The notes: generated by a model not told the origin, from the letters alone. DNA of 64,000 nucleotides from an uncultured Acidobacteriota bacterium (GCA_963732005.1 CAVSXT010000005.1:2638631-2702630); one strand, 5' to 3'; counted from the stretch's first letter, positions 14,282 through 55,776 are shown. A program made the numbers and translations.

Positions 14282-14548
14282 GCCGAGGCCGAGTCCGCGG
14301 TCCAAAAACTCTCTCGACCGCTCGGATGGCGAGCTCGACGCGGAAGGGAAGCTCGCGGGGGAGCGCCGAGACGGCCAGCCTGGCCGCTTCCGGCCCTATC
14401 TCGCGGACGATGGCCTCCATCGCCTTCTCGGGTCCCTTCATCGCCTGCTCCACTTGCTGCAAGGCCCTGTTGAGGTGTTGTAGCTGATCGCGCAGTTTGG
14501 GCAGGCTTTCGCCAATGGCGTTCGCGGCGGCCTGCGTCCTCGGCCGAG
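14282..14548 (-). pseudogene. 3'-terminal fragment of a relaxase gene; ~270-bp direct repeat (~90% identity) of 1780-2050
   Basis: Nucleotide identity is visible by eye. Translation (...NAIGESLPKLRDQLQHLNRALQQVEQAMKGPEKAMEAIVREIGPEAARLAVS...) parallels the relaxase C-terminus. The flanks diverge. Confidence 0.75.
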
Positions 14549-14700
14549 TACCCCCGGCCGCACTTCGCGCCATCGCGGTACAGCCGGGGGCGGACGCCGA
14601 AGGGCTTGAGCTGGCGGGCGAGCTGGACCGCGGACATGGTCCGGCCGTGCCGCCCAGGGCGGCCCACAGCAGGGTGCACTAGTTGGATGCGCAATCCCAA

Positions 14701-14961
14701 TCACTGTCCACCAAGTTGTAGGTGTCGTTCCTCTCGTGCCCTCGGTTTGACACCTGAGAGATCGAGCTTCTCCACGAGCCGGCGTCTTGCGCGCAGCGTT
14801 TCAGTCTCTGCCAGCAATCCGCGTCGGTGAAGTCTGGTGATTGCATCGGCGTCGCGCTGTAGGTCATCGAGGAGCGTCGCAGAACCAGGCTCCGGCTGTG
14901 GGTATCCAAGCTGTTCCGCGAGAGATGGCGCCGAGGCGCCAAACCTTAGGGTCAAGGACAT
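14701..14961 (-). CDS. hypothetical small protein (86 aa) downstream of a ~130-bp AT-rich island
   Basis: Internal ATG at 14959-14961. No family recognised. Confidence 0.3.
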   Translation of the reverse strand: MSLTLRFGASAPSLAEQLGYPQPEPGSATLLDDLQRDADAITRLHRRGLLAETETLRARRRLVEKLDLSGVKPRAREERHLQLGGQ

Positions 14962-15258
14962 ATTCACTCCTTTCCTAATCCCATCTTGTTGAAATTCACA
15001 CTTCGAAAGAAAACTTAGCACAGGAGTTTTGCGAACTACAACAGAGTTATTGACAAATGCCGATATCACTGCGGTGATCCATCAGGGTGCGCCAGGGTGC
15101 GCGCCGCGAACCCGGCCCAAGCTGTCCAGCTCTCCTGGGTGACGAGTTATGCTCTCGGCGGCAGTAAGTCGGCAAAGCAGCGGCGTCGCACAGCTGGCGG
15201 TCTTTGTTTTCGCTCTCCAATTAGCGGCCGGACAACCGGGCAACGCGACCCCAGGGCC

Positions 15259-15573
15259 TCACAGCCCCCCGTGGAACCGTCCGAATCCGTGCGCGAGCAT
15301 GAGCGACATGATCAGGATGCCCGCCCCGAGGACGAGCACGTGCCGGGTGTTGCGCAGACTGAAGTCGCCGACACGACAGACGAGCAGGTAGCCGACGGCA
15401 AGGTTGAAGAGGCCCCAGAGGACATTGATCGTCGAGGAGGACAAACCTTCCCCGGGCGGCGATGCGAAGGGGCTCTGGAAGGCATGCCCCGAGATCCCAT
15501 TGCCGAGATGGGGCAGGGTATTCGCGAGGAATGCGCCCCCGAAGAAGTACGCCACATAGTGGTACCACCGCAT
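15259..15573 (-). CDS. small integral membrane protein (104 aa)
   Basis: Three predicted hydrophobic helices. Natural composition. Confidence 0.45.
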   Translation of the reverse strand: MRWYHYVAYFFGGAFLANTLPHLGNGISGHAFQSPFASPPGEGLSSSTINVLWGLFNLAVGYLLVCRVGDFSLRNTRHVLVLGAGILIMSLMLAHGFGRFHGGL

Positions 15574-15923
15574 GGTTGCTCCCTTCTCTTAGAGGAGGCC
15601 GCGAAGCTGGTTGCGGGTGAGTGAGCTCGCAGTCGCGCAAAATCGCAGCCAGAAGGCCCGGTCCGATTCTCTCCCCCGCGTGGACCGGGACGACCGTCGT
15701 GCGACCGTCTGCATGCCTCAGCGATGCTGGCTCGCCAGCTCCGACGGCTGGGTCGGTAGTGAGGGCGGTGGCCAGCGTCGCTCCTGTTCGCCTCCGAGCT
15801 TTCCGCCCGATCGCGGCACCGAGCGGCTCGCTGGCCCCGCGGCGCCCGGTCGGACTCGCCGAGGAGCTCGCGACCGAGCTGGGTGGCCTTCCCGCGGCAG
15901 CGGCCGCCGGTTCCGAGTTTCCT

Positions 15924-16358
15924 TCAGTTTTCGATGAGACGATTCTTCCAGCGCAGGCCGGGAAAGCGAGCGAAGTCTGCATCCGTCGTGCAGATCTCGA
16001 GGTCATGCTCGACCGCGAGGGCGGCAAGATGCGCGTCGGTGGTCAGATTGCCACCCGCGCCGGTCGACCTTAGAAAGCCGAAGAGGATCGCGGCATGCCG
16101 CTCGCCGGGGTGGAGCACAGAAACCTGTGGTCTGGTCAGCCATGACTCGACGATCTCGCAGGCGGCGGCTACAGCGAGGGGGTTCGCGGAAATCTGGCGG
16201 TGGGTCGCCAGGCGCAAGAACCCGAGAATGACCACCCAGGGCAGCTGGACCGGCGAATCCTCCGTCATCCGTCCTTCCCACCACCTTCGTGCGACCGCGT
16301 GCGCCGGGGAATGGGAGTTGTATGCGTGGAGGAGCAGATTGACGTCGGGGAGGATCAC
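15924..16358 (-). CDS. vapC: PIN-domain toxin VapC
   Basis: MILPDVNLLL... N-terminus. ...TTDAHLAALAVEHDLEICTTDADFARFPGL C-terminus with the acidic PIN residues. Confidence 0.8.
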   Translation of the reverse strand: MILPDVNLLLHAYNSHSPAHAVARRWWEGRMTEDSPVQLPWVVILGFLRLATHRQISANPLAVAAACEIVESWLTRPQVSVLHPGERHAAILFGFLRSTGAGGNLTTDAHLAALAVEHDLEICTTDADFARFPGLRWKNRLIEN

Positions 16359-16615
16359 TCCCTGACCTTCTGCGCGGTTGCCGCAGCTTCCAGATCGTCC
16401 ACCAGCTGATTCATCTTGTCGAGGTCGATCCCGGCCGCGAACTGGAAGTCGTGGGGCTGCACGCGGAACGGCTCCCGTGCGCTAGCCAATCCCCTGAGTC
16501 CAAGGCGTGAGCGCAGCGCGTCGTTCACCAGAGCCTCTGCTGGCTTTCCCGCGCGGCGGACTTCTTGCTCGATCCGCTCGGCGACATCCGGGTCGAGAGT
16601 CACGGTGATGGCCAT
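16355..16615 (-). CDS. vapB: VapB-type antitoxin
   Basis: 86-aa protein immediately upstream of vapC. Its stop overlaps the vapC start by 4 nt. Confidence 0.65.
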   Translation of the reverse strand: MAITVTLDPDVAERIEQEVRRAGKPAEALVNDALRSRLGLRGLASAREPFRVQPHDFQFAAGIDLDKMNQLVDDLEAAATAQKVRE

Positions 16616-16859
16616 GGGCCGATGATGTTGTCACCGGCGAGGGTTGTCAAGGGCGGGAGCACTGCGGATGCTGCTGCGCCTGACAGCGGGCGGCGACGCG
16701 CGCCCACCGCCAAGGCCAGATCCTGACTGGCCCAGGCGGTGAACGTGGTGACCTTCAGTCTAGCCAAGGGGCCACGCTGGGGAGGGAGGGCTCGTAGCGG
16801 ATCAGCATCGAAGTCGTGACGCCCGCCCGCCGCCCCGCCAAGGGGAAGACGTCAGCGAA

Positions 16860-17015
16860 TCACTGGCTGCAGGTGTTGACTGGGCAGAAGGTGAATCCCC
16901 GCGTCGGGAGGCAGGGCACCGTGCTCCCGCCTCCGGCCACCTCGCGGAGCGTGTCGGGCGAGGCAAGCTGGCGCAGGGTTTCGCGGTAGAGCAGGAGCTT
17001 GCGGCTCTTCTTCAT
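16860..17015 (-). CDS. small Cys-containing peptide P1 with a double-Gly leader-like N-terminus (MKKSRKLLLYRETLRQLASPDTLREVAGGG / STVPCLPTRGFTFCPVNTCSQ)
   Basis: Strong RBS AAGGAGA 7 nt upstream of ATG 17013-17015. Paralogous to P2 and P3. Confidence 0.5.
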   Translation of the reverse strand: MKKSRKLLLYRETLRQLASPDTLREVAGGGSTVPCLPTRGFTFCPVNTCSQ

Positions 17016-17204
17016 GATCTGTTCTCCTTGTCGATGATGATCCGCTAGTGCCGGCGTGTCCGGCCGGCCTTTCAAGAAGGGTAGTGCTGCGGCTCTACCT
17101 GCTCGTGACCAGCGCGGCGGCCAGGGCGCGGCCGCTTCTTGGGTCCGGGGCGGAGCAGTCCTCCCCTAAGCCAAGACCGTACAGCAGGTTACGCCTTTCA
17201 CCGC

Positions 17205-17540
17205 GGCTATCCTCTCGTCGACGACCAGGACGCTGCCGGCATGAAGCTGCGACTCCCCACGATCCCGGGAGTACTTGCAGCTGTGCAGGGTGCGAGAGCG
17301 GATGCCGGCTTCTGCCGCAAGGTGCCGGCGGCCTTGCTGCCAGGGCGGCGCCGATGACCTGGTAGCCGGCCTCGCGATAGGCGTCGCCGATCGTCGCGGC
17401 CGCCGTGGTCTCGCCGGCACTGGCGCGGCCGACGATCAGGGCGAGGTCGTCGCGGGCAGTGCATCACGCGGCGCGCGTCCTTGCCTACCGTCACTATCCG
17501 GTCGCGGTCGAGCGCCCGCTGGGGGCGCCGTGCCTATCTT
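17205..17540 (-). pseudogene. internally deleted relaxase gene remnant (homologous to 3300-3790, the VLVVDEAGM/P-loop region)
   Basis: Clear nucleotide similarity in the same orientation with an internal deletion. Overlapping track ORFs are junk. Confidence 0.7.
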
Positions 17541-17627
17541 GGCGAATTGCCTTGAATTAGATATGGTAAAACATGGGAATGATCCCCGATCTGCCGGGCT
17601 GCATTCAGCGGCGCCAAAGGAGATTCG

Positions 17628-17807
17628 ATGCGCAAGAACCAGAAGACACTCAAGCTCAACCGCGACACCGTCCGCAACCTGGATCAGGGCATACTTGCCA
17701 GGGTCGCGGGCGGTACGGACGGAGCCTGCTCCTACACGCTCTGCGGCACAGACGTCGTCTGTTACTACGGAAAGTCTCACTGCCCCGGCGCGACATGCTT
17801 TTGCTGA
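17628..17807 (+). CDS. small Cys-rich peptide P2 with a double-Gly leader-like N-terminus (MRKNQKTLKLNRDTVRNLDQGILARVAGG / TDGACSYTLCGTDVVCYYGKSHCPGATCFC)
   Basis: 59-aa ORF, below the track size cutoff. Strong RBS AAAGGAGA 5 nt upstream of the ATG. Six Cys in a 30-aa C-terminal region. Confidence 0.5.
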   Translation: MRKNQKTLKLNRDTVRNLDQGILARVAGGTDGACSYTLCGTDVVCYYGKSHCPGATCFC

Positions 17808-18043
17808 ACGGTAACGGCTGCTGATCGATGTACGCGGCGGGCTGCCTTGGCCGCGCCGCGTCCCGCTCACTCGAGCGCGACGGAAAGAAGAGAAGCGGCC
17901 TTACACCGCCGGCCGCCGGCTTGGCGGCGGTTCTGCTCCCACCTCGCTGCTGACGCCAAGTCAGATGCCGAGCGGTCGCCATTCGACAGCACTTGTCCCG
18001 TGGTCGGGTCCCTTTGCGCATACCCATGGGGAGGAAGTCCTCG

Positions 18044-18883
18044 ATGCGCACGACCCCTGCTCGCTTCACCCTGGTATCGCTGGCGATGGCAACTACACTC
18101 AGCGTGGCGAGCTGCGGACAGGTGCCGGCTAAGTGGGTCGCCGGCGAACGAGCACCATCGGTGCGCAGCGGAGCGCTGTGGAACGAGCCACGGTTCACGA
18201 GGATGCTCCAGGCCTACCGCCAGAAACTCCCAGGCAAGAGCCGGGCGCTGCGATTCGCGATGACAGAGAGCGGCGCGAGCCTCCAGGTGCAGGACTCGGC
18301 CGAGCTCGCGAAGGTCGTTTCCTACAGCTACGACGGGGCGGTGTTGAGCGGGCCGTCACCCGTCGACCTTGCGAGCGTGGCCGAAGACTCCGACCTCGCC
18401 GACGAACTTTTTGACTGGGACCAGGTCGCAGTTGAGCGCATCCCCACCCTGGTCAAGGTGGCGCTCAGCCGGACCAAGCTCGCGGGGGCCAGAGTGGCGC
18501 AGGTCAAGATCACGCGCAAGGCGCCCACCTCTGCCGAGCTCGCCCGGCGAATCGAAGCGAAGATCGATGCGCAGATGGATGCGAGTCGCCGAGCAATGGA
18601 ACAGAAATTCCGTCGACTCGACCCGGAGTTCTGGGCCAGAAACCCGGCGGCTGCCCGCAGGATTTTTGGCGGCGAGCCGAGAGACGGCAAGAGCGACCAA
18701 CGATCCGTGCTCGCGCCGATGGCCGTCGAGATCAGCCTCCGACTGCAGGTTCCGTGGGGCTTCGCCTGGCTCACAGCCGACGCCAGCGGCACGGTCACCG
18801 GCAGCGGCCAGCAAATCACCGGGCCGCCCGTGGATCTCGACAGTATTCCGCGACCGTACTGGCGCCGAGCGGCAGGACTCTGA
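18044..18883 (+). CDS. hypothetical lipoprotein
   Basis: RBS GGGAGGAAG then ATG. Signal peptide with lipobox LSVASC. Confidence 0.55.
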   Translation: MRTTPARFTLVSLAMATTLSVASCGQVPAKWVAGERAPSVRSGALWNEPRFTRMLQAYRQKLPGKSRALRFAMTESGASLQVQDSAELAKVVSYSYDGAVLSGPSPVDLASVAEDSDLADELFDWDQVAVERIPTLVKVALSRTKLAGARVAQVKITRKAPTSAELARRIEAKIDAQMDASRRAMEQKFRRLDPEFWARNPAAARRIFGGEPRDGKSDQRSVLAPMAVEISLRLQVPWGFAWLTADASGTVTGSGQQITGPPVDLDSIPRPYWRRAAGL

Positions 18884-18999
18884 GAAGGTTTTGGCCCGTC
18901 TGTCTCGGTGGCTCATCTCGGTAGCGCTTCATTAACGCGCACGGTTCGGAGCGAAGCGACGCTCGCGTGATCCTTAGTTGAAGGTGTCCACCGTCAGGT

Positions 19000-19062
19000 C
19001 GCGAGGGCATCGTGGCCCGGCGCCAAGGCTACGGGCCCGGCGGCAGCCGGCGCGTCAGGGGT
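19000..19062. repeat. ~60-bp remnant homologous to the 3' end of the primase-helicase gene (8030-8080)
   Basis: gagggcatcgtggcccggcgccaaggctacgggcccggcggcagccggcgc versus gagggcatcgttgcccgccgccagggctacgggacgggcggcagctggcgc. Confidence 0.45.
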
Positions 19063-19158
19063 TCAGGGGGTTCGATCCGTCCTTGACCCGCTGATTCAGG
19101 CGTTGGTAGGATATTGATCGCTGATTTTCCATCGCTGATCCATCGACGAGGGGGTGTT

Positions 19159-19965
19159 ATGCGAGATCGAGTCCGCTCGCTTGGCCCATGGCTTCTCGGG
19201 GCCGTTGCCATCGTGAGCCTGGGCGTCGTCTGTGCCGGTTGTGGGGCCAAGGGTTCGAGCTATGTCGGCAGGTGGGAATGCGCCGCGGGAGGGAAAGGAT
19301 CGTTCGAGGTCAAGGCCAACAACGGTTCGTTCCTGGTAACGATCAACGGCGAGACGACGTACCCGGCGGCGCTGGACGACAAGGGCACGTTGGTGCTCAG
19401 CGGTGTGCCGACGCTGGGCTCGCTGCCCATGCCTATCGACGCGGCCACCGGCGAGCTGATCTGCTCGGCCTGCGAATGTCACCGCCTGAGCAAGAAACAG
19501 GCCGCAGACGCGGGCGTGACGAAGGCGATGGCGACAGCCAGCTCACTGCTGCCATCGAGCAACGCTAACGACGCCCGCGCGCAGAGAGCGACGGTCGCCG
19601 ACATCCGCAACGCCGGCACCGCGATGTTCAGCTGGGTGACCGATCAGGTGGGAGCCGCGGCGGCCGGCCAGCAACCGGTCGATCTCGCGAAGTTCCCGCC
19701 GGTGTCCTCATTCGCGGCGCTCAAGGAGCTGCTGGTCCCCAAGTACATCCAGGAGCTGCCCGAGCGCGACGGGTGGGGCCATCCCTACGAATACCGCCTC
19801 AACGTCAAGAACCCGACCGCCGGCACGTACGTGATGTGCATCCGTAGTCCCGGCCGCGACGGCAGGTTCTCGGGGCTGAGCTACGCGGCCGAGGCGTTCC
19901 CGCGAGACGATTACGACCACGACATCGTGTGGGCGGACGGTTACTTCGTGCAGTGGCCCAAGTGA
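19159..19965 (+). CDS. hypothetical lipoprotein (Cys-containing, secreted)
   Basis: ATG at 19159. Signal peptide with lipobox VVCAGC. Confidence 0.55.
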   Translation: MRDRVRSLGPWLLGAVAIVSLGVVCAGCGAKGSSYVGRWECAAGGKGSFEVKANNGSFLVTINGETTYPAALDDKGTLVLSGVPTLGSLPMPIDAATGELICSACECHRLSKKQAADAGVTKAMATASSLLPSSNANDARAQRATVADIRNAGTAMFSWVTDQVGAAAAGQQPVDLAKFPPVSSFAALKELLVPKYIQELPERDGWGHPYEYRLNVKNPTAGTYVMCIRSPGRDGRFSGLSYAAEAFPRDDYDHDIVWADGYFVQWPK

Positions 19966-20155
19966 GGTCGCGGCACGGTTCGCCCTCACCTATGCTGGCG
20001 CTGGCGGCCTGGTTGGTTGAAGGCCGTCCGTTCTGAGCGGCGGGCTTCAGATCTGCGGCCAAGTCGCACCCGAATCCGCGGAGGATCTGGCGGTGCTCTG
20101 GGTCGACGTCCAGGCGCAGGGCGCCGTCGCGCTCGAGGCCTCCGACCATCGGCCG

Positions 20156-20563
20156 TCAGGGTTTCGTCTGGAACGCGATCAGATAGGGTACTGCCGGCCT
20201 GTTCTCGAGGTCACGGAAGTTGTTGAAGCGCCCCGAATTGACCCAGATCGCATAGCTCTTCCCTGGCTCCAGATGCACCGGCAGCACACAGGTGCGTTTG
20301 TCGGTCAGGAAGCGCGGTTTCCCAGCGAGCTTCGGGAAGGAGGCCGCATCGATCTGGGCCCAGGACCACATCTCATTGGTCATCATGTCCTTGCTGAAGG
20401 TGACGGTGATCTCCTTGAGCGCCGGGTCCACCGCGAGGTCGCCGCTCTGCGGGACCGTCTTGACGGCAATCGGAGGCAGGTCGGCAACGGCAGTGCTGTT
20501 CTGGGCGAGAACGGGCGATCCGAGCAATACGAGCATGGCGAGCGCAGAGCCTAGCGGCTTCAT
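20156..20563 (-). CDS. hypothetical secreted protein (135 aa)
   Basis: Internal ATG 20561-20563 with RBS AGGAGGA. Signal peptide MKPLGSALAMLVLLGSPVLAQ. The IS1634 left end lies ~44 bp upstream. Confidence 0.5.
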   Translation of the reverse strand: MKPLGSALAMLVLLGSPVLAQNSTAVADLPPIAVKTVPQSGDLAVDPALKEITVTFSKDMMTNEMWSWAQIDAASFPKLAGKPRFLTDKRTCVLPVHLEPGKSYAIWVNSGRFNNFRDLENRPAVPYLIAFQTKP

Positions 20564-20606
20564 CGTCTCCTCCTGTAGGACTGTCGCCGACGGTTTCACC
20601 GACGAG

Positions 20607-22533
20607 TCTAGCCCATCTTTGACAGTATGCCGCCCGATTACCGCCATCTTCGCGTCGTAAGTCATTGAAAAATCGAGGAGGGAGTGCTCGGCGCCATCTC
20701 AATCCTGGTGCCAAGAATGTGTCATAATGACGCCTTGCATAGAGCGCTCACTCGGATATAATCATGGTGACAAGGAGAGGTCACCATGTTCTTCCGCCAG
20801 AAAAAAGCCGGGGGCCACGTGTACCTCCAGATCGTTGAAAACCGCTGGGAAGACGGCCAAGCCCGCCAGCGGGTCCTGGCGACTCTCGGCCGCCTCGATC
20901 AGCTCACCTCCTCCGGGGAGTTGGCGGCGCTGCTCGCATCGGGCGCTCGCTTTACCGATTCTTTCACTGTCTTGACCGAACATCGCCGCGGCGACTTGGC
21001 GGCGGTGAGCACCCGGCGTATCGGCGCGCCTCTGATCTTTGAGCGCTTATGGCAGGAGACCAGTTGCGCCCAGGTGCTGAGTGCGGAATTGGCCGAGCGT
21101 CAGTTCGAGTTCCCGGTGGAACGGGCGATCTTCCTTGAAGTGCTCCACCGCTTGGTAGCACCCGGCTCAGACCGTGCAGCCTACGCCTGGCGAGAAGCTT
21201 ATGGCATCGCCGGTGCCGAAGCCCTCGACCTCCATCACGCCTACCGCGCCATGGCGTGGTTGGGCGAGCCGACCGGCGAGACAGGCGGGCGGACGATCAA
21301 GGATCGCATCGAAGAGCAACTCTTTACCCGTCGGCGGGACTTGTTTTCTTCGCTGCAATTGGTCTTCTTCGACACCACCTCTCTCTATTTCGAGGGCGCC
21401 GGGGGTGACAGCTTGGGCCAGTATGGTCATAGCAAGGACCACCGACCGGATCTGCGACAGATGGTAGTCGGTGTGGTGTTGGATCAAGAGGGCTGGCCGA
21501 TCTGCTGTGAGCTGTGGCCAGGCAACACTACCGATGTCGGAACGCTGGTGCCCGTCATCGAGAGGCTGAGTCAACGCTTCGGCATCCAGCGGGTCTGTAT
21601 CGTCGCCGACCGCGGCATGATCGCGGCGGCAACGCTTCAGGCCCTGGACCAAAAGGGCTGGCCTTACATTGTCGGCGCGCGGCTGCGCAGCAGCCGGGAG
21701 GTGCGCCACGAGGTGCTGGGCCGCCAGGGCCGGTTCGCGAAAGTCTTCGGCCCGCGCCAGATTGCCAAGGACCCGTCGCCGCTGTCGGTCAAGGAGGTCT
21801 GGGTCGATGATCGCCGCTACATCGTGTGCTTCAATGAAGAACAAGCGCGCAAAGACGCTGCCGACCGGCAAGCAATTCTTGCGGCGCTTGCCGATCGGCT
21901 GCCGCAAGGCGCCAAGTCGCTGATCGGCAACCAGGGTTTCCGCCGCTATGTCACGACACAAGGCGATGGCTTTCGGATTGATCCGGCGCGAGTGGCAGCC
22001 GAGGAGCGCTACGACGGCAAGTGGGTGTTGAGGACCAACACCGACTATCAGGCCGCCGAGGTCGCCTTAGCGTACAAGCAGCTCTGGATGGTGGAGGATC
22101 TGTTCCGGTCGATGAAATCGCTGCTTGCCACGCGGCCGATTTATCACCGCCGCGACGCCACGATCCGCGGTCATGTGTTCTGCTCATTCCTGGCGCTGCT
22201 TCTGCGAACAGAACTGGAGAATCGACTCGCAGCCAAGGGTCATGTGGCAGTGGAGTGGGGCCAGGTACTGCGCGATCTCGACCGACTGGAGGAGGTAGAA
22301 CTCGAGAAGGATGGTAAGCGGCTGATGCTGCGCACCGACGCGGTGGGAGTGGCGGGCAGGGTCTTCCAGGCTGTGGGAGTGGCGCTCCCGCCGACCCTAC
22401 GCCAAGTGGCCTGATCGCGCACAGCCCAGATCCTCTCGGAACCGGAACTCCTGGTGCCAAGGTCTCTCACCGAGCTCTCAACCCATTTATTTGCAGAGAC
22501 TTGACATTGGGCACTGTCAAAGATGGGTCTAGC
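20607..22533 (+). mobile_element. IS1634-family insertion sequence (~1.93 kb) with imperfect ~25-bp terminal inverted repeats
   Basis: Left end tctagcccatctttgacagtatgcc (20607-20631). Right end ggcactgtcaaagatgggtctagc (22509-22533). These are reverse complements with 2-3 mismatches. A single transposase ORF lies between them. Confidence 0.8.
20786..22414 (+). CDS. IS1634-family (IS4-like DDE) transposase
   Basis: MFFRQKKAGGHVYLQIVENRWEDGQARQRVLATLGRLD N-terminus is characteristic of IS1634. 542 aa, intact. Confidence 0.85.
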   Translation: MFFRQKKAGGHVYLQIVENRWEDGQARQRVLATLGRLDQLTSSGELAALLASGARFTDSFTVLTEHRRGDLAAVSTRRIGAPLIFERLWQETSCAQVLSAELAERQFEFPVERAIFLEVLHRLVAPGSDRAAYAWREAYGIAGAEALDLHHAYRAMAWLGEPTGETGGRTIKDRIEEQLFTRRRDLFSSLQLVFFDTTSLYFEGAGGDSLGQYGHSKDHRPDLRQMVVGVVLDQEGWPICCELWPGNTTDVGTLVPVIERLSQRFGIQRVCIVADRGMIAAATLQALDQKGWPYIVGARLRSSREVRHEVLGRQGRFAKVFGPRQIAKDPSPLSVKEVWVDDRRYIVCFNEEQARKDAADRQAILAALADRLPQGAKSLIGNQGFRRYVTTQGDGFRIDPARVAAEERYDGKWVLRTNTDYQAAEVALAYKQLWMVEDLFRSMKSLLATRPIYHRRDATIRGHVFCSFLALLLRTELENRLAAKGHVAVEWGQVLRDLDRLEEVELEKDGKRLMLRTDAVGVAGRVFQAVGVALPPTLRQVA

Positions 22534-22653
22534 AGCCCGCGGCGCTAACGCTGAATTCGGTTGAGCCGAGGGTGGAGTCCCGGCCGGCCCTGCCGCTGGT
22601 CTCTGGCGGGGCGTGACCGCTGATACGATGGAGCGGCACAAGGAGGCGGAAGA

Positions 22654-23616
22654 ATGAAGGCTGCGGTTCTGCATGAGCTTGGGACGGTGCCGCGATGCGA
22701 GGATTTTGCTGAACCGACGGCGGGCCAGGATGAAGCGGTGGTGCGCGTCCGCGCCGCGTCACTCAAAGCCATCGACAAGCAACTGGCCAGTGGCTCGCAC
22801 TATGCCAGCCCCCGTGAATTGCCGGTGGTGTGCGGAACCGACGGAGTTGGGGATCTCGAGGATGGCACGCGGGTATTCTTTGGTGGAGCGAGGCGGCCTT
22901 ACGGCGCGATGGCGGAGCGCACCGTGGTGCCACGCGCGTATTGCTTCCCGGTGCCCCCCGGCCTCGATGACGACAGGGCGGCGGCGCTGCCGAATCCGGG
23001 CATTTCTGCTTGGCTATCGCTGACGCAACGCGCGCGGCTGGCGCCGGGCGAGACTGTCCTCATCCTGGGCGCGACGGGCGTCGTCGGACAGCTGGCCGTC
23101 CAGATCGCGAAGCTGCTCGGGGCGAGGCGCGTGATCGGCGCGGGACGCAATGAGCGAGTGCTCGGCATGCTGAGCGAGCTGGGTGCGGACGCGACGATCC
23201 AGGTCGATCAGCTTCCGGACTCTCTCAAGGACGCATTCGCGCGCGCGGCGGGAGACGAAGGGTTCGACGTCATCATCGACTACTTGTGGGGGCGGCCTAC
23301 GGAGGCGCTGCTCGAGGCGATCACCAAATCGGAATTTGCGGCAGTGACGAAGGAGACGCGTCTCGTGCAAGCGGGCGAGAGCGCCGGGCCGACGATCTCG
23401 TTGCCGGCTGCGGTCCTGCGCAGCACGGCGTTGACGATCCTTGGTACCGCGGGGATACCGTCACCCAAGGTCTTGGGAGAGGCCATGCAACAGGTCATGG
23501 CGCGGGCGGCCCGCGGGGAGCTCCGCATCGAGACCGAGCGAGCTCCGCTGACAGAGATCGCAGGGGCGTGGCAACGTCAGGGACAATCGGGGCGCAGAAT
23601 CGTGGTGACCCCCTGA
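22654..23616 (+). CDS. zinc-type alcohol dehydrogenase / quinone oxidoreductase family (MDR) protein
   Basis: RBS AAGGAGG. Rossmann motif LILGATGVVGQLAVQIAKLLGA. 320 aa. Confidence 0.75.
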   Translation: MKAAVLHELGTVPRCEDFAEPTAGQDEAVVRVRAASLKAIDKQLASGSHYASPRELPVVCGTDGVGDLEDGTRVFFGGARRPYGAMAERTVVPRAYCFPVPPGLDDDRAAALPNPGISAWLSLTQRARLAPGETVLILGATGVVGQLAVQIAKLLGARRVIGAGRNERVLGMLSELGADATIQVDQLPDSLKDAFARAAGDEGFDVIIDYLWGRPTEALLEAITKSEFAAVTKETRLVQAGESAGPTISLPAAVLRSTALTILGTAGIPSPKVLGEAMQQVMARAARGELRIETERAPLTEIAGAWQRQGQSGRRIVVTP

Positions 23617-23832
23617 GCCAGCAGAGAAGGGAGAGCCAGCGCGCAACGGCCGCGGGTTCAGAATCATGGACCGCTCTTTTCAAATGGCTGGATCTGGCCG
23701 CCTTGGCGGTGGGCGCAATTGGCTGCCAGCCCTTTGTTTTCAAGGCCTGAGCTCGACGACCGCCGAATGGCACCCGGCTTGCTTTAGGAGGCATCAGCCC
23801 GGAGTCACGAGTGGGGTACAAGGAGACGGACG

Positions 23833-24588
23833 ATGTACAAGACGATGCCTCCGCTGATCCTGATGCTATCCCTGGCCGTGATCAGCCCGCTCCGTGCAGA
23901 CGCGGGCAAGGATCATCCCTATCCGAACATGGCTCCCCTCGAACGGTACTTGCCGGCAAGCCAGGCCGCCGAGATCGCCCTGGCGCGTAGCGCAGGGCCT
24001 GCCGCGGTCTCGGACAAGGCCGAGATCCTGGTGCTCGGTGCCCACGGCTATGAGAAGGCCGTGCAGGGAAGCAATGGCTTCGTGTGTTTCGTGGAGAGAT
24101 CGTGGGCGAACGACTTCGACGCCCCCGAATTCTGGAACCCCAAGATCCACACGCCACAATGCTGGAACGCGGCCGCGGCGAGCTCGGTGCTCCCGGACTA
24201 TCTCAAGCGCACCCAATGGGTGCTCGCCGGAGTCTCCAAGGAGGAGATGCTGGCCCGGACGAAGGCGGCCTTGGCAGCCCATGAGATCGGTTCACCCGCT
24301 CCGGGGTCCATGGCTTACATGTTGTCGAAGGACCAGTACATAAAGGATCCCCAGCCGGGCGTGGAGCCGCGTTGGTATCCCCATGTCATGTTCTTCGTGC
24401 CCGCCACCGAGGACTCGACGTGGGGCGCCAACGTTCATGGCGCGCCGATCTTCTCGGCCACCAGCGGTGCGGAACCGATCACGACCTTCTTCGTGCTGGC
24501 GCCCAAATGGTCCGATGGGAGCCTCGGTCCCTATGTCCCGGCCCCGGCCGCGACCACGGCGAAACCCGAAGCCCACAGCCACCGCTGA
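23833..24588 (+). CDS. hypothetical secreted protein (251 aa)
   Basis: RBS AAGGAGA. Signal peptide MYKTMPPLILMLSLAVISPLRA. Confidence 0.5.
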   Translation: MYKTMPPLILMLSLAVISPLRADAGKDHPYPNMAPLERYLPASQAAEIALARSAGPAAVSDKAEILVLGAHGYEKAVQGSNGFVCFVERSWANDFDAPEFWNPKIHTPQCWNAAAASSVLPDYLKRTQWVLAGVSKEEMLARTKAALAAHEIGSPAPGSMAYMLSKDQYIKDPQPGVEPRWYPHVMFFVPATEDSTWGANVHGAPIFSATSGAEPITTFFVLAPKWSDGSLGPYVPAPAATTAKPEAHSHR

Positions 24589-24656
24589 CAGAACCCTCGC
24601 GGCGTACGGCCACGAGGGGCGAGCACGACCGATGGCGATGGCCTCAGGCGATGGCC

Positions 24657-48015: not shown

Positions 48016-48825
48016 ATGACAACCTCTTTCACCGACGACACCACGCACCTCGCCGAGACCTACGACCGCATCAGCGACTTTCAGTTCGAAAACGGCAAGC
48101 GCCTCGTCGAGCGCCTGAACCTCGAGGCGGGCGACCGCGTCCTCGACGTGGGCTGCGGCACCGGACGACTCGCTCGCTGGATCGCCGAGCGCGTCAGCCC
48201 CACGGGCAGCGTCGTCGGCATCGACCCGGTCGCCGAGCGCATCGCCATCGCGAACGCCGGTGCCGGCGGCATCACCTTCGCGGTGGGTCAGGCCGAGGAC
48301 CTGGGCGCGTTCGCCGCCGAGAGCTTCGACGCGGTGAGCATGTCGGCGGTCTTTCACTGGGTGGCCGACAAACCGCGGGCGCTCGCCGAGATCCGCCGCG
48401 TCCTGCGCCCCGGCGGCCGCCTCGGGGTGACCACGTTTCCGGGCGAGCTGAGCGGCGCGGGTACCGTGCCCGCGGTCCTGGCCCCCGTGCTCGCACGTTC
48501 GCCCTACGCGGAGCGGGTGGACCGGTCGGGCCCCGGCGCGCTGAGCCGGGACTACACCACCACGCGATTGATCTCGATGGTGATGGAGAGTGGCCTCCAG
48601 CTCGCCGAGCTGCAGGTCGCGGCGCGCTCCCGGCATTACGCCACGGGAGCGGACGTGGTCGCGTTCATCGAGTCGAGCGCGTTCGGCAACCTCACCAAAG
48701 CCGTCCCTGAGGAGCTGCGCGAGGCGCTGCGCCTCGACCTGGCCGCCGCGTTCGAAGCGCGCAAGGGTCCCGAGGGCATCGCGCTTCGGGACTGGGGAAC
48801 GCTCTTCGTGGCGAAGCGGCCCTGA
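48016..48825 (+). CDS. class I SAM-dependent methyltransferase (269 aa)
   Basis: Motif I VLDVGCGTGRLARWIAE and motif II FDAVSMSAVFHW. ATG at 48016. Transcribed divergently from the NRPS. Confidence 0.8.
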   Translation: MTTSFTDDTTHLAETYDRISDFQFENGKRLVERLNLEAGDRVLDVGCGTGRLARWIAERVSPTGSVVGIDPVAERIAIANAGAGGITFAVGQAEDLGAFAAESFDAVSMSAVFHWVADKPRALAEIRRVLRPGGRLGVTTFPGELSGAGTVPAVLAPVLARSPYAERVDRSGPGALSRDYTTTRLISMVMESGLQLAELQVAARSRHYATGADVVAFIESSAFGNLTKAVPEELREALRLDLAAAFEARKGPEGIALRDWGTLFVAKRP

Positions 48826-48853
48826 GGGATTTCGCGGTACTTACCTGCCGGCT

Positions 48854-49015
48854 TCACCCTCGGCGCGGAATCGGCGGCGCGCACTCCGGGCAGGTGTAAA
48901 AAGCCGGAATCGAGTAGTGCCCACCCGGCGCATCTGCCAACTGGCCGTGCTGCAGCGCGGCCAGCGTCTCGGCGCGCAGCGAGAGCTTCTTCACCTGCGA
49001 GGCATTCTTCTTCAT
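48854..49015 (-). CDS. small Cys-containing peptide P3 with a double-Gly leader-like N-terminus (MKKNASQVKKLSLRAETLAALQHGQLADAPGG / HYSIPAFYTCPECAPPIPRRG)
   Basis: RBS AGGAGA ahead of ATG 49013-49015. Leader resembles P1 and P2. Confidence 0.45.
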   Translation of the reverse strand: MKKNASQVKKLSLRAETLAALQHGQLADAPGGHYSIPAFYTCPECAPPIPRRG

Positions 49016-49194
49016 GGTCCTGTCTCCTATGGTTGTCCGCCCCTGCAAGAGAGAGTGTGACCTGAAGCCGAAATGAGGCCACCTTGCGCGTACAGGTGCT
49101 GCGGGGAAGGACGGTGCCTGTCCGACTGGACAGCCGGCGCTTGCGGTGGCGTAGCGAAAGGTTTTTTGGGATACGTGCCTTGAACGAGGTCCTC

Positions 49195-49564
49195 ATGACA
49201 CGGACGCGAGTGCCGCCGGTGCTGGTCACCGGAGCGACCGGCCGGGTTGGGCGCGTCGTGGTCGATCTGCTGATCGACGCGGGCGTGCCGGTCCGCGCCC
49301 TCACGCATCGCTCCGCGGCGGCGGCGACGCTGGCGGATCCAATTCGAGGAGCTGTCGCCGGACGAGTTTCGCGGCGAGACGGCGGGAAGCTGGCCGCGCC
49401 CGGCCGTGGACATGCTGCTCGCCGCGTGGGGCGCAACGATTGGCAGGCCGGCGTTCATCACCTCGACGGTGTTCGACCTCCTCGGATCGGCGCCACGATC
49501 GTTTCGCCAGTGGGCCGCCGATCACGCCACCGCGTTCAGGGAAGGTCCAACCCCATCGAGTTGA
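49195..49564 (+). pseudogene. NmrA-like NAD(P)-binding protein with an internal deletion and frameshift
   Basis: N-terminus MTRTRVPPVLVTGATGRVGRVVVDLLIDAGVPVRALT. After ~45 aa the reading jumps (other frame) to the typical NmrA C-terminus ...PRSFRQWAADHATAFREGP*. Confidence 0.5.
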
Positions 49565-49690: not shown

Positions 49691-50926
49691 TCAGCGACGG
49701 GAGGCGGCCACCGATTCGAGCTTGGTGAGGCGCTCGGCGAGCGCGACGATCGTGCTGTTCTGGCTGGCGATCGTGCTCGCCAGGCCGTCGATCGTGCCCT
49801 GCAAGGCGCCGATCTCGGTCGCCTGCCGCGCGATCGTGGCGTGCTGCTGCTGCACCTCGCCGAGGAGCATGGCGTTGACGAAGTGGTAGCGGACGGTGAG
49901 CGGCTTGCCGTCGTCGCCGTATTCGACCAGGCCGGGATCGACGGCGGCGACCTCCTCGGCGATCAAGCCGTACTGCAGGATGCGCTGGCCGTCGTCATAT
50001 TGCGGCTGGTAGTGGAAGGTGACGGGGCGAAGCCGCATCAGCTTGTCGCCGGCGGCGCCGAGATCCGCGACGTCCTCCTTGAAGCGCAGCGATGAGGTCG
50101 CGGTTCCGAGCTTGCCGGAGCTGCTCACGTAGACCGGGATGCCGGAGGAGGCGGTGGCCCCATAGATGCCGGCGACGTAGGCCTGGGTCTGGGCGCCGGA
50201 CGAGCCGATCCGCGTGACGCCGACGTCGCCGGCCACGCCGGTGTTGGACAACGTGATGTTGTTGCTTTCGCTGGCCGTGTAGGAGGCACCGGCCAGCAGG
50301 CCCACCGCCACGTTGGAAGAGCCGCTCACCACGTGCATCAGGGCGCCGGGGCCCACGGCGGTGTTGTACTGGCCGGTGGCGTTGGCGTAGAGGCCGTACA
50401 TCCCCAGGGCGACGTTGTAGGTCCCGGTGGTGTTGCTGAGCAGGGCCTGGTAGCCGGTCGCGGTGTTGTAACCGCCGGTGGTGTTGCCGAAGAGGGCCTG
50501 AAAACCGGTCCCGGTGTTGTAGGGGCCGGACGTGTTGTGGTACAGCGACTCATAGCCCAGAGCCGTGTTGCCGTCGGCGGTGCTGAAGAGCAGCGCGGTG
50601 GAACCAACGGCGACGTTGTTGCTCCCGGTGGTGTTGAGCTCGAGCGCCTCCGTGCCCATGGCCACGTTCTCGTTGCCCGTGGTGTTCTGGTCCATGGCGG
50701 AATCGCCGAACCCGGAGTTGGCGCCACCCGAGACGTTCAAGGCGAGGACGTTATACCCGAAGGCGACGTTGCTCAGCCCGTAACCGCCGTTGGCGAAGAC
50801 GGGGTCGCTGGCGCAGGTGTTCGGTGGGATGTTGGCGCAGTAGCCGCCGGCGTGAAGCGGCATGCTCCTCGCCAGCATGCCCGCGGCGAGGAAGAGACAA
50901 GAGACTCCTGCAGCGCACCTCTTCAT
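49691..50926 (-). CDS. secreted repeat protein with C-terminal Peptidase_S74 (intramolecular chaperone of endosialidase/tail-fibre) domain
   Basis: Signal peptide MKRCAAGVSCLFLAAGMLA. Degenerate NT(x)G...YxAL head-like repeats. C-terminal SSLRFKEDVADLG...VTFHYQ...YGLIAEEVAAVDPGLVEY matches the S74 chaperone domain. Confidence 0.7.
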   Translation of the reverse strand: MKRCAAGVSCLFLAAGMLARSMPLHAGGYCANIPPNTCASDPVFANGGYGLSNVAFGYNVLALNVSGGANSGFGDSAMDQNTTGNENVAMGTEALELNTTGSNNVAVGSTALLFSTADGNTALGYESLYHNTSGPYNTGTGFQALFGNTTGGYNTATGYQALLSNTTGTYNVALGMYGLYANATGQYNTAVGPGALMHVVSGSSNVAVGLLAGASYTASESNNITLSNTGVAGDVGVTRIGSSGAQTQAYVAGIYGATASSGIPVYVSSSGKLGTATSSLRFKEDVADLGAAGDKLMRLRPVTFHYQPQYDDGQRILQYGLIAEEVAAVDPGLVEYGDDGKPLTVRYHFVNAMLLGEVQQQHATIARQATEIGALQGTIDGLASTIASQNSTIVALAERLTKLESVAASRR

Positions 50927-51121
50927 GGCAGCTCCTCTGGCCGTACCCGGCCATTCGCAGCAAGCCCGCCGGCGGGCCTGCTGCTGGAGGATGCGCAATG
51001 CCTCGTCGGCAGGGGACAGGCGGTCGGCGTGGTTCCCAGCCGGTGGCGCGGCCGGCCCGCGAGGCAGAGGCTGCCGGCTCACGAAAGCGCTCAGGCAGCG
51101 CTCAGGCAGCGCTCATGGTCG

Positions 51122-52489
51122 TCACCCCGGGCCGAGCGCACGGCTCGCTTGCCGGGCTGCGCGCAGACCGCTGGCCAGGGCGCCCTCCACCGTCCCGGTG
51201 TGGCCGCCGGTGTCGGTGGCCTCGCCGGCGAAGAACAGCGTGTCCTCGACCGGCCGCGACAGACTGCGCGCGGCCCCGGCGCCGCCGACGCGGGCGTAGC
51301 TGTAGGCGCCACGCGAGTAGGGATCGTGCTGCCAGTCGTGCATCCAGGTCTCCACCAGGAGCGAGGCGACCGTGCGCCGCGGCAGGCGCAAGGCCGCCGC
51401 CAGCTCGCCGACGGCCGTCGCCTCGACGGCGCGGTGGCCACCCTCGAGGATCGCCGCTGCCTTCGGGCCGCCGGACCAGGCCACGGCAAGCGGCCAGCGC
51501 AGCGGGTAGGCGGTCCACCAGACGCCGAAGGTCGGGCCGCCCAGGTGCCAGAAGCTGGCGTGCGCGGTCCGTTCGGGATGGTGCTCGCCCGGGGCGGCGC
51601 CGCATGGAAACTCGCGGAACCAGCAGGCCAGGCGCGCCACCGCTCCCATCGCCACCAGGCCGCAGGTGCGCCGGATGCGCGGCGGGTCCGGTCGCAGCAG
51701 GAGCGCGCCGGGCTGCCGCGGGCCGGCGGCGAGCACGCCGGCGGGGACGGTGACGATCGCCGCTCGCGCGGTGAAACGCTGCGCGGCGCCTGCGTCCCGC
51801 CGCTGGGCGCCTGCGTCCCGGCGCTCGGCGCCCGGGTCCCGCTGTACGGTGATCTGGACGTGCCCTCGCCGCCACTCGATGGCCGTCACCGGCGACCGCA
51901 GGCGCAGCTCGGCCGGCAGCTCGCCCGCCAGCCAGAGTGGCAATTGGTCATAGCCTCCGTGCACCCGCGCCATCCGCGTCGCCACGTTGCCGGACGGCTC
52001 TCCCGCCGCGGGCGCCAGCGAACGGACGCCGAGCTGGGCCGGATCGGCGGCGTGGTAGCCCTCCACGAAGGCGCGGGCGGCAAGCCGATCGCGCGCCGGG
52101 ACGCGGTTGCCGAGGCCGGCGAGGAAACCGTCGAAGGAACGATCGGAGGCGCGAGGGTCGATCCGTTCCAGGATGCGTTGGATGGGCATCCACGCCTCGG
52201 TCCGCGCGGCCTTCCCGCCGCGCGCGCGCCAGTGCTCGCCACCCAGGTCGCAGGTCGTGATCCCTGCCTCGGCGAGGATCCGATGGGTCACGGGCGCTGC
52301 GCCATGGACGAACTCGGCGCCCAGCTCCACCGGCAACGGCAGGCGCGGGTCGCGATGCGTGAGGATGCGGCCGCCGACGCGGTCGCGCGCCTCGAGCACG
52401 ACGACCGTCAGCCCCCGGCGGCGCAGCTCGCGGGCCGCCGCCAGGCCCGCGACGCCGGCGCCCACCACGGCCACATCCGCTCGCTCCAT
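51122..52489 (-). CDS. flavin-containing amine oxidase family oxidoreductase
   Basis: RBS AAGGAGGT. Dinucleotide-binding motif [19 protein letters not shown]...[12 protein letters not shown]-terminal [19 protein letters not shown]. Confidence 0.8.
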
Positions 52490-52526
52490 CCGACCTCCTT
52501 GCCGCCCAAGCTCCGTTCCACCGGCG

Positions 52527-53099
52527 CTAGGTGGCGGGGGGCTCTGGCCGCTCTTCGTCGGGACGCTCATCTCCCAGGCGGTTGATCACCAGGTAAGTGA
52601 CGGTGTCCCATGCGTTGTGGATGCCGATGACCAGCAGCAGCAGGGTCGCCGCGGCGATCGTGAACAGCGCCCCTGCCGGCCGCCCCACCAGCGCCAGCCC
52701 GGCAACCAGCAGCAGTGCGTGCGCCGTCAGCGGCAGGGCGATGTGCCAGATCCAGTCCTCGGCCACCAGGCGATAATCGGCGAAGCGCCGCGCGCGCCGG
52801 CTCACCAGCCCGGTGTACCCCACTCCCCCCGCCCCGCAGACCGCGATCAGGGCCGCGGCTCCCGACAGCCCATCCCAGGGTGCGCAAAGGACGGCGGAGA
52901 GCAGCAACACGGTGCTGAAATAGACGACCGTCGGGCTGGAGAAAGCCTCGATCCCCCCATCCACCTTGGGCAGCCGCATCTGGGCGCTGAGAGCGATGAC
53001 GACGAACTGCAGCCCCGTCAAAGCCGCCGCGGCCGAACCGGCGACGACGTAGAAGTTGGCCCAGCGAGTCAGCTGGGTCGCCGCGTTGAAAGCGTGCAT
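52527..53099 (-). CDS. hypothetical integral membrane protein (190 aa)
   Basis: RBS GGAGGA then ATG 53097-53099. Four or five hydrophobic helices. Confidence 0.45.
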
Positions 53100-53437
53100 G
53101 GCATCCTCCGATGGCTGGGGTCGCCGATGAGTCCGTGTTCGTCCGCCCTGGTCTCGGCCAGGATACGTCACAAGTGCGCCACCGGCTCGCGGACGGTGGC
53201 AGAGTTTCCGCGGAAACGTCCTCGCGGCTGGCCTGCGACTCGGCACTGGAGGCGAGGCGAGGCGCCGCGCCGCGGACGGGGGCGCATACCGGGCGCATAC
53301 CCCCCTGGACCATAGGCTCCTGGCTTCAGGGTCCTCGTCGCGCTCGGCGCCCGCCGGCACGTAGAATCAATGGCTGGCGTCGGCACCGTCGCCTGCCGGC
53401 GGCGCCGCGCGCCGCGCCGTCCTCGCGGTGCCCGTAG

Positions 53438-54560
53438 GTGGCACTGAGTACTATGCCGGCGATGGTGCCGGACCGCTCGGGAGGACTCGTCATCAGCTCG
53501 ACAACACCAGGGGCCCCGGGCTCGATCAAGGTGGTGGTTTGGGACCTCGACAACACGCTGTGGGAAGGGACTCTCCTCGAAGGCGACGCGGTGCGCCTGC
53601 GGCCGGCGGCCGCCGCGGCCCTGCGCACCCTGGACGCCCGCGGCATCCTGCTGTCGATCGCCAGCAAGAACGATCACGACCAGGCGATGGAGAAGCTGCG
53701 CGAGCTCGGCGTCGAGGACTACTTCATCTATCCCCAGATCGGCTGGAACGCCAAGTCCCTGGGGGTCGCGGCCATCGCCAAATCGATCAACGTCGGCCTC
53801 GACGCCATCGCCTTCATCGACGACGATCCTTTCGAGCGCGACGAGGTCGGTCATGCCCTGCCGCAGGTGAGGGTGCTGCCGGCGGCAGCGGTGGCCGAGC
53901 TGCTGGCGATGCCGGAGCTGATGCCGCGCTTCATCACCGACGAGTCGGCGCAGCGGCGGCGCATGTACCAGGCGGACATCGAGCGCAACCGTGCCGAGGA
54001 AGGTTTCCAGGGGCCGCAGGAGGACTTCCTGGCCGCGCTGGGCATGAGGTTCGCCATCCATCCGGCGCGCGAGTCGGACCTGCGGCGCGCCGAGGAGCTG
54101 ACGGTGCGGACCAACCAGCTGAACACCTCGGGCCAGACCTACTCCTACGAGGAGCTGGATGCCTTCCGCCGCTCCGCCGGCCACCTGCTGCTGATCGCCG
54201 GGCTGGAAGACCGCTATGGCGCCTATGGCAAGATCGGCCTGGTGTTGATCGCCAGGCAGGAGCGGCTGTGGACTCTGAAGCTGCTGCTGATGTCCTGCCG
54301 CGTGATCTCGCGGGGCGTCGGCTCGATCCTGATCCTCCACGTCCTGCGCCTGGCTCGAAGCCGCCGGCGTCCGGCTGCAGGCCGAGTTCAAGGCGACCGC
54401 GCGCAACCGCATGATGCTGGTCGCATATAAGTTCGCCGGTTTCCGCGAGGTCGCGCGGCATGGCGAGGTGCAGGTCTTCGAGCACCCGCTCGACCAGGTG
54501 CAGGGGTTCCCGCCCTATGTCCAGGTCGAGCTCGGCTGGGAGCCCCGGCCGGCGAGCTGA
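53438..54560 (+). CDS. FkbH-like glyceryl-ACP synthase (HAD phosphatase/acyltransferase) with an apparent frameshift near 54350
   Basis: HAD motif VVWDLDNTLWEG and IASKNDHD. After ~54350 the conserved C-terminus ...EAAGVRLQAEFKATARNRMMLVAYKFAGF... continues in the +1 frame to the stop at 54558-54560. Confidence 0.75.
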
Positions 54561-54580
54561 GAGCGCGGTATTGGAGGACG

Positions 54581-54620
54581 GGGGAGAACGGGGGAGAACG
54601 GGGGAGAACGGGGGAGGTAC
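54581..54620. repeat. 10-bp tandem repeat GGGGAGAACG x3 (plus degenerate flanks) overlapping the RBS of the next gene
   Basis: Seen directly in the FkbH-FkbK intergenic region. Confidence 0.6.
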
Positions 54621-54624
54621 GCGA

Positions 54625-55506
<882 letters not shown>

Positions 55507-55527
55507 GACCGCCGCCGCGAGCGCGCC

Positions 55528-55776
55528 ATGAACGACGTCCAGAGCCGGCTCAAGGCCTTCCTGTCACGTTTCTTCCGCCAGCACGACCTGCAGCCCGACG
55601 AGGACATCTTCGCGCTCGGGTTCGTCAACTCGCTGCTGGCCATGCAGCTGGTGAACTTCGTCGAAAAGGAGTTCGGCATCACCGTCGAGGACGAGGACCT
55701 CGACCTGGACAACTTCCGCACCCTGGCCGCCATCGACGCGCTGGTCGAGCGCAAGCGCGCCGCCGCCGGCGTCTGA
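55528..55776 (+). CDS. discrete acyl carrier protein (FkbJ-like)
   Basis: 82 aa. LGFVNSLLAMQLV carrier-Ser context. Positioned as in fkbHKJI/zmaNGDE cassettes. Confidence 0.8.
   Translation: MNDVQSRLKAFLSRFFRQHDLQPDEDIFALGFVNSLLAMQLVNFVEKEFGITVEDEDLDLDNFRTLAAIDALVERKRAAAGV

Follow-up and report, generated by a model that had tools for sequence, protein, structure and literature searches.

The small gene P3, which lies beside a large NRPS gene in the 64-kb stretch of DNA analysed here (the window), is a real and conserved gene under purifying selection. Its product is probably an orphan RiPP precursor of the LxLxKx5L...GG leader type, matured in trans and functionally independent of the NRPS and methyltransferase (MT) genes next to it, a reading that we favor with some reserve. 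The ORF lies exactly where an earlier, sequence-only reading had placed it, and its product is the leader followed by the core listed here with the neighboring features:

48854..49015, minus strand: P3 coding sequence, an ATG-start ORF of 53 codons (53 aa) followed by TGA
48920..49015, minus strand: P3 leader, residues 1-32, MKKNASQVKKLSLRAETLAALQHGQLADAPGG, with a double-glycine cleavage motif at its end
48857..48919, minus strand: predicted P3 core, residues 33-53, HYSIPAFYTCPECAPPIPRRG, with exactly two Ser/Thr and two Cys
49016..49078, minus strand: conserved 5′ region with the Shine-Dalgarno sequence and a CTCTCTCTT tract, aligning across loci with unrelated flanks
48016..48825 (most likely extent), plus strand: MT gene, 269 aa
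24657..47720, minus strand: NRPS gene, 7687 aa

A Shine-Dalgarno sequence (AGGAGA, 49023..49028) lies 7 nt 5′ of the P3 ATG, and the GC3 of the ORF (0.80) fits a coding sequence in a window of 71.6% GC. A word-indexed search of 5.8 billion proteins returned 11 close homologues, 60-100% identical to P3, and the relatives come from Thermoanaerobaculia, other Acidobacteriota MAGs, and soil metagenomes. Alignment of the homologues shows little or no variation in the segment GG-HYSIPAFYTCPECA and more in the leader; the core HYSIPAFYTCPECAPP is nearly invariant, residues L11, L13, E16, T17, L21, L26, G31, and G32 are identical in all 11 homologues, and H33 to A46 are almost so. Codon differences, summed over all pairs of the nine distinct sequences, amount to 134 synonymous and 46 non-synonymous in 16 codons of the core, as opposed to 121 synonymous and 184 non-synonymous in the leader, a pattern that points to purifying selection on the P3 protein, strongest in the core. 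A chance origin of the ORF was rejected on conservation and on this pattern, and the claim that P3 and its like are not chance ORFs is thus borne out for P3 by homologues with a near-invariant core in which most codon differences are synonymous.

Conservation extends upstream of the coding sequence. About 60 nt 5′ of the ATG are kept at loci that otherwise have unrelated contexts (L001, L004, L007-L009, L012, and L014), and homology with the closely related loci L007 and L020 begins at 49078. The CTCTCTCTT tract in this region (CUCUCUCUU) is complementary to the AGGAGA Shine-Dalgarno sequence, and in single-sequence folds the CUCUCU tract pairs with it; this CUCUCUCUU/Shine-Dalgarno pairing might serve translational control. 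A structured 5′ UTR or riboswitch was considered and rejected, as the alignment fold is weak (-2 kcal/mol) and shows no compensatory pairs or covariation. Rfam gave no match to the 5′ region at E <= 1, and scans around P3 for sigma-70 promoters and intrinsic terminators found none.

The leader is of a type already catalogued (NF038153, PF28317), and close relatives of P3 are already auto-annotated. P3 matches the NCBIfam model NF038153 (lant_leader_L1a, class I lanthipeptide) with 26.0 bits (E 7.5e-6) over model positions 1-32 of 32, the cut-off being 22 bits. The same model matches 20 of 21 tested members (E <= 0.01) of the wider subfamily to which P3 belongs, defined by an [S/T]CPEC motif in the core. 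Precomputed matches to PF28317 (Lant_leader_dom) are found on many P3 relatives, and the L007 orthologue (HLX06237.1), among others, carries the NCBI name “class I lanthipeptide”; a search of a local Pfam copy with P3 itself gave no match. In Bacteroidetes, leaders with LxLxKx5L that end in GG were described for class I LanAs, and a C39 protease is often present in clusters with such leaders (Walker et al., 2020, PMC7268733). In P3 the motif reads L11-S-L13-R-A15-x5-L21, followed by G31 G32. The Lys position is occupied by Ala in P3, by Val, Ala, Arg, Thr, or Gln in its orthologues, and by Arg in P1 and P2, the two other GG-leader peptides of the window; the motif Leu positions and the GG are invariant among P3 orthologues. 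The C39 domain holds the -4, -7, and -12 residues together with the GG in a hydrophobic groove (PMC6363468), a pattern that P3 fits with A(-4), a small residue, L(-7), L(-12), G(-2), and G(-1); L(-12), which is L21, L(-7), which is L26, and G31 and G32 are invariant across the orthologues. By its score against the leader model, P3 can be classed as a member of the lanthipeptide-leader family, with “class I lanthipeptide” as a biosynthetic system being putative.

The leader models cannot decide the chemistry of the P3 product, because 10 of the 21 subfamily members also match TIGR04149 (GG_sam_targ_CFB), a model for leaders of rSAM-modified RiPPs, at E <= 0.01. These matches speak for an alternative in which P3 is the precursor of another RiPP class with the same leader type, either of a radical-SAM/SPASM, TIGR04149-like kind with sacti- or ranthipeptide thioethers or with an unrecognised maturase. 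Cys-rich cores occur also in rSAM-type RiPP classes, which is in keeping with this alternative. New RiPP enzymology is moreover known from Thermoanaerobaculia, in the form of a GMC oxidase that makes thiazoles (PMC13083261). However, P3 itself has no TIGR04149 match even at E <= 10, and NF038153 matches twice as many subfamily members with better E-values; the TIGR04149 match of the subfamily member P0020 scores 20.7 bits against a cut-off of 25. Furthermore, no radical-SAM/SPASM maturase adjoins the peptide gene at any locus, the only rSAM seen being a housekeeping-looking protein of the Radical_SAM_N2 type, 5 kb away in L035. Another RiPP class is, on balance, an improbable assignment for P3.

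In the P3 core, only S35, T41, C42, and C45 are able to form (methyl)lanthionine. An exhaustive profile search of 1.84 billion cluster representatives gave 71 matches at E <= 1e-3, many of which have a common C-terminal TCPEC(A/N)PP behind varied N-terminal core parts, and the profile of the [S/T]CPEC subfamily (A3) finds 238 proteins. Among the 122 retrieved members that contain CPEC, 106 have Thr and 15 have Ser directly before it, so that [S/T]CPEC is present in 121; Ser and Thr together are at least as numerous as Cys in 116 of 119 cores, and exactly two Cys and two Ser/Thr are found in 38 cores, P3 included. This 1:1 bookkeeping of Ser/Thr and Cys, together with the strictly conserved Ser/Thr, is the pattern expected of thioether (lanthionine) chemistry.

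In some Acidobacteriota, genes of the [S/T]CPEC type stand in tandem pairs or triplets (L032 10001..10574, L036 6164..6584, and L035 9007..9411). A tblastn match to the P3 leader from a Chthoniobacteraceae MAG (L010 9872..10186) was dismissed as fortuitous; it runs antisense inside a nucleotidyltransferase-like gene and lacks the GG motif. Literature searches on the TCPEC motif and on class I lanthipeptides of Acidobacteria and Thermoanaerobaculia found nothing on the P3 family.

Maturation of P3 would take place in trans. Searches by tblastn with the LanB, LanC, and PCAT sequences of L011, combined with Pfam tables, found no LanB, LanC, LanM, or C39 transporter in the 64-kb window or within ~10 kb of 37 related loci (323 kb), and no Peptidase_C39 in either set; the tblastn searches of the related loci matched nothing but a generic ABC ATPase, which lies 7 kb from the peptide gene in L022. 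L011 itself, from an Actinomycetota MAG, provides a positive control, since its region 9500..17336 is a complete class I lanthipeptide cluster with three tandem precursors of this leader type beside LanB (Lant_dehydr_N and Lant_dehydr_C), LanC, and a C39-ABC transporter. Because neither the window nor the 37 loci hold any of these proteins, the machinery that matures P3 is one that we purely infer. A synthetase of the lanthipeptide type (LanB with LanC, or LanM), its gene lying elsewhere in the genome, would dehydrate S35 and T41 and form two thioether rings that overlap, S35-C42 and T41-C45 in the simplest case, and a C39-ABC transporter would cut after G32 and export the peptide.

Some of these observations suit a peptide that is exported as it is. 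P3 may be an unmodified or C42-C45 disulfide-bonded double-glycine peptide, akin to a bacteriocin or microcin or to a ComC-type signal, that a C39-ABC transporter exports without any RiPP enzyme. There is no modifying enzyme near the peptide in any of ~15 annotated neighborhoods, conservation is higher in the core than in the leader, as expected with one fixed receptor or target, a GG leader with L-12 and L-7 fits C39 exporters in general, and weak matches to bacteriocin-leader families occur in the subfamily. However, no exporter is found nearby either, and the absence of neighbors therefore does not discriminate between modified and unmodified readings. A near-absolute Ser/Thr before CPEC and a 1:1 ratio of Ser/Thr to Cys in 38 cores are hard to explain for an unmodified peptide, and the best family match of P3 is a lanthipeptide leader model, scored over its cut-off. 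A mature peptide of 21 residues would also be short for a class II microcin. We think an unmodified product fairly unlikely.

The position of P3 had been read as meaningful, “immediately beside the NRPS/MT operon”. P3 and MT are indeed convergent, as that reading had it, with 28 nt rather than 30 bp between the stop codons, and the 269 aa of MT agree with the length of its counterpart as called in an independent assembly. P3 and NRPS share a strand, with P3 1.1 kb upstream and MT lying antisense between them. MT (plus strand) and NRPS (minus strand) are divergently transcribed, and there is therefore no “NRPS/MT operon”.

On its other side, P3 is separated from an amine-oxidase gene by a gene (49691..51082, minus strand) whose 463-aa product has a signal-like N-terminus, repeats rich in Gly, Asn, and Thr, and a Peptidase_S74 domain (an intramolecular chaperone of the tail-fibre/endosialidase type). 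The region just beyond, 51122..55776, encodes a flavin amine oxidase, a HAD-like hydrolase, a 3-hydroxyacyl-CoA dehydrogenase, and a stand-alone acyl/peptidyl carrier protein (55528..55776), and these genes may belong to the NRPS pathway, for example in starter-unit supply, rather than to P3.

Comparison with other genomes separates P3 from these neighbors. Eight of the neighborhoods compared surround P3 orthologues and are distinct from one another, and a further seven belong to members of the wider [S/T]CPEC subfamily. The more distant orthologues (60-82% identical) and the subfamily genes have unrelated, often housekeeping neighbors. P3 orthologues are found between DinB_2 and an MscS/FHA channel plus kinase (L001), between two Uma2 genes near YceD, L32, PlsX, and FabD (L004), between an XRE regulator and FdhD (L008), between a HAD hydrolase and an unknown gene plus an Fe-S assembly gene (L009), between an ECF sigma factor and a 1051-aa protein (L012), and upstream of an FG-GAP protein (L014). 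Similarly, subfamily genes are upstream of a common YdjC/GT4/histidine kinase context in L032 (three tandem copies) and L036, adjoin TPR/ACT in L033 and L034, form a pair between RuvB and RuvA in L035, and adjoin ribosomal protein S1 in L037, an aldolase in L038, and superoxide dismutase in L039. None of the ~15 neighborhoods contains an NRPS except those of the close relatives L007 and L020, so that an NRPS adjoins P3 only in the window, in a Logan contig of identical order, and, at the opposite NRPS end, in L007 and L020. Likewise, the MT of the window is beside the peptide in no other neighborhood except an independent assembly of the window's own arrangement; in L033 and L034 an unrelated methyltransferase gene lies ~10 kb from the peptide. 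P3 shows no conserved link to the neighboring NRPS gene, and a proximity confined to the window and its close relatives does not support the meaning that the sequence-only reading had given to the position.

The close relatives show how the present order may have arisen. L007 (a Thermoanaerobaculia MAG) and L020 (an independent 131-kb JGI contig) carry the last 9.8 kb of the same NRPS, with 95% DNA identity to the window, and their P3 gene, 89-90% identical over window 49078..48840, lies ~200 nt after the NRPS stop, that is, downstream of the NRPS. MT is absent beside this P3 copy, and the DNA beyond it matches window 15585..15255 and 13058..12626. No second P3 copy is reported on either contig. 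In the window, the NRPS stop is separated by ~9 kb (15586..24651) from a conserved ORF for a small membrane protein (15259..15573), and these ~9 kb hold a PIN/RHH toxin-antitoxin pair, P1, P2, unknown secreted proteins, a DDE transposase, and a dehydrogenase; where the window carries this ~9-kb insertion, L007 (9797..10703) and L020 (9797..13248) have only the P3 gene. The P3 of the window is on the 5′ side of the NRPS, and its own 3′ flank is cut 14 nt past the stop. The Logan contig reproduces the order of P3, MT, and NRPS start seen in the window, and both arrangements are therefore real. We read the two placements of P3 as a local rearrangement around the insertion of an island, and it is by such a rearrangement that P3 would have come to its place next to NRPS and MT.

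An NmrA-like NAD(P)-binding gene remnant (49206..49564, plus strand) lies 190 nt upstream of P3; its N-terminal ~45 residues match Pfam NmrA positions 5-42, after which the frame breaks and a C-terminal-looking piece continues in another frame. The remnant marks a rearrangement scar beside P3. The flanks of the P3 copy in L007 and L020 have no match in the window. A mobile mini-cassette was also considered and set aside, as no consistent direct or inverted repeats flank P3 in the window, L020, L008, or L001.

A functional tie between P3 and the NRPS, MT, or both, whether through co-regulation, as a component of a hybrid RiPP-NRP, or as a methylation substrate, would draw on the placement on the NRPS strand 1.1 kb upstream of that gene and 28 nt from the MT stop, on the same order in an independent assembly, and on the P3 gene that follows the same NRPS stop by ~200 nt in two close relatives, so that two arrangements touch the NRPS. 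This double contact is the only argument for linkage and could be read as the result of selection for linkage rather than of accident. However, distant orthologues and subfamily members sit beside DinB_2, Uma2/L32/PlsX, FdhD, HAD, ECF sigma, RuvA/RuvB, S1, and SOD genes, with no NRPS and no such MT, and MT is not next to P3 in L007 and L020. MT and NRPS are transcribed divergently, P3 is accompanied by a conserved 5′ region of its own at every location, and this part of the window bears rearrangement scars (the NmrA remnant, the truncated 3′ flank of P3, and the 9-kb island). Such a tie is very improbable.

P3 had also been described as the third member of a dispersed precursor family, together with P1 and P2, which reside in the island that separates the NRPS from the small membrane-protein ORF. 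The features of this part of the window, of which 1..24600 resembles a mobile element, are:

16860..17015, minus strand: P1, a GG-leader precursor of 51 aa, leader MKKSRKLLLYRETLRQLASPDTLREVAGG and core GSTVPCLPTRGFTFCPVNTCSQ, in the lower-GC mobile island
17628..17807, plus strand: P2, a GG-leader precursor of 59 aa, leader MRKNQKTLKLNRDTVRNLDQGILARVAGG and core TDGACSYTLCGTDVVCYYGKSHCPGATCFC, in the same island as P1
2214..4775: MobA/VirD2 relaxase-helicase
4772..5713: NikA/MobC
5969..8128: primase/AAA_25 gene
11311..11988: RadC
12461..13492: integrase
15924..16615: PIN/RHH toxin-antitoxin pair
20786..22414: DDE transposase

Both P1 and P2 begin with ATG behind a strong Shine-Dalgarno sequence and carry a GG motif, after which the tail is rich in Cys, Ser, and Thr; GC falls to 63-66% around them. 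A strict regular expression of the proposed leader motif, applied to the six-frame translation, finds P3 only, and looser ones add P2 and P1. An HMM of the leader built only from P3 homologues in other genomes was run against the 987 six-frame stop-to-stop segments (>= 25 aa) of the window; its top three matches are P3, P2 (E 3.3e-5), and P1 (E 4.9e-3), followed by a fourth with E 3.6. Since the HMM ranks P3, P2, and P1 on top, the leader similarity is significant within the window, and the proposal of a common GG-leader type is confirmed by a model that, built from P3 orthologues, picks out both P1 and P2. NF038153, conversely, gives P2 17.2 bits, under its cut-off, and does not match P1. P1 has ~15 orthologues with the conserved core GSTLPCMPT(H/R)(G/E)FT(F/L)CPVNTCSQ, and P2 orthologues are 75-93% identical, including the core, which is of the type TDGACSYTLCGTDVVCYYGKSHCPGATCFC; orthologues of both occur in other metagenomes, and both cores end in a common C-P-x-x-T-C motif. 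P1 and P2 are real genes, in other orthologous groups than P3. The notion of a dispersed precursor family is therefore fair at the level of the leader superfamily, since the leader is common and each peptide has its own conserved-core orthologues, but not at the level of orthology, where P1, P2, and P3 are separate groups. Two ORFs downstream of P2 (17993..18883 and 19114..19965) were rejected as candidate maturases, since they look like secreted proteins or lipoproteins and match no family.

Among known systems, class I lanthipeptide precursors of the NF038153/PF28317 type in Bacteroidetes, including that of pinensin (PMC7268733), resemble P3 in a leader of ~30 residues with a Lys-rich N-terminus, in the L-x-L-x-[K/R]-x5-L spacing, in the GG end, and in a core with Ser/Thr and Cys. 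They differ in that the fifth motif position is Lys there but Ala or Val in P3 orthologues, that no LanB, LanC, or C39 gene is near P3 or the subfamily members examined, and that conservation in P3 peaks in the core instead of the leader. In addition, the host of P3 belongs to the Acidobacteriota (Thermoanaerobaculia), and P3 is known from sequence alone. Prochlorosins and Nif11-type precursors (ProcA, served by one promiscuous ProcM) offer a likeness for genes scattered far from their synthetase, which for P3 would be an inferred one, and for a GG-type leader cut by a C39 transporter (PMC7268733, PMC6363468). However, their leader family is a different one (Nif11), and they combine conserved leaders with hypervariable cores, whereas the P3 subfamily has a nearly invariant core; this reversal, with a core more conserved than the leader, counts against the preferred reading of P3 as a trans-matured precursor.

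Class II bacteriocins and microcins and ComC-type pheromones are like P3 in the GG site with hydrophobic -7 and -12 residues (P3 has Ala at -4), in being small stand-alone genes, and in their conserved mature peptide. Conversely, they are unmodified or disulfide-bonded only, whereas the P3 subfamily has Ser/Thr adjoining CPEC and matched Ser/Thr and Cys counts, and the P3 leader matches lanthipeptide-leader models, not Bacteriocin_IIc models. The class II tha/the clusters of Thermoanaerobaculia, in which lanthionine rings were demonstrated experimentally and LanM is accompanied by a GMC oxidase making thiazoles (PMC13083261), come from the same bacterial class as P3 and also have a leader and a Cys-rich core. 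Their precursors are clustered with LanM and the GMC oxidase and have a Gly-Cys thiazole site, whereas P3 is unclustered, with no GMC oxidase or LanM in the window.

What is mildly unusual about the [S/T]CPEC subfamily is that its genes are consistently orphans and its core is fixed. These two traits admit a tentative proposal, unlikely as it stands, in which the [S/T]CPEC(A/N)PP peptides would be a distinct, core-conserved Acidobacteriota family with a dedicated trans-acting pair of maturase and exporter, possibly not LanBC, and with a conserved physiological role (a signaling or housekeeping-type extracellular one) rather than that of a variable antibiotic. If this were true, the family would be the inverse of the prochlorosins, with a fixed core, a drifting leader, and a precursor that is always an orphan.

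For annotation, P3 illustrates that a gene of 53 codons, real and conserved, may be skipped by gene callers, and that genome-mining tools that require a precursor beside its enzyme would miss it. Nor should P3 be drawn into the boundary of the NRPS cluster or be used to propose a hybrid pathway. The natural products of Acidobacteriota are only now being characterised, and the more than 200 [S/T]CPEC peptides of this phylum, none of which was found beside a maturase, are a test case for trans-acting RiPP maturation.
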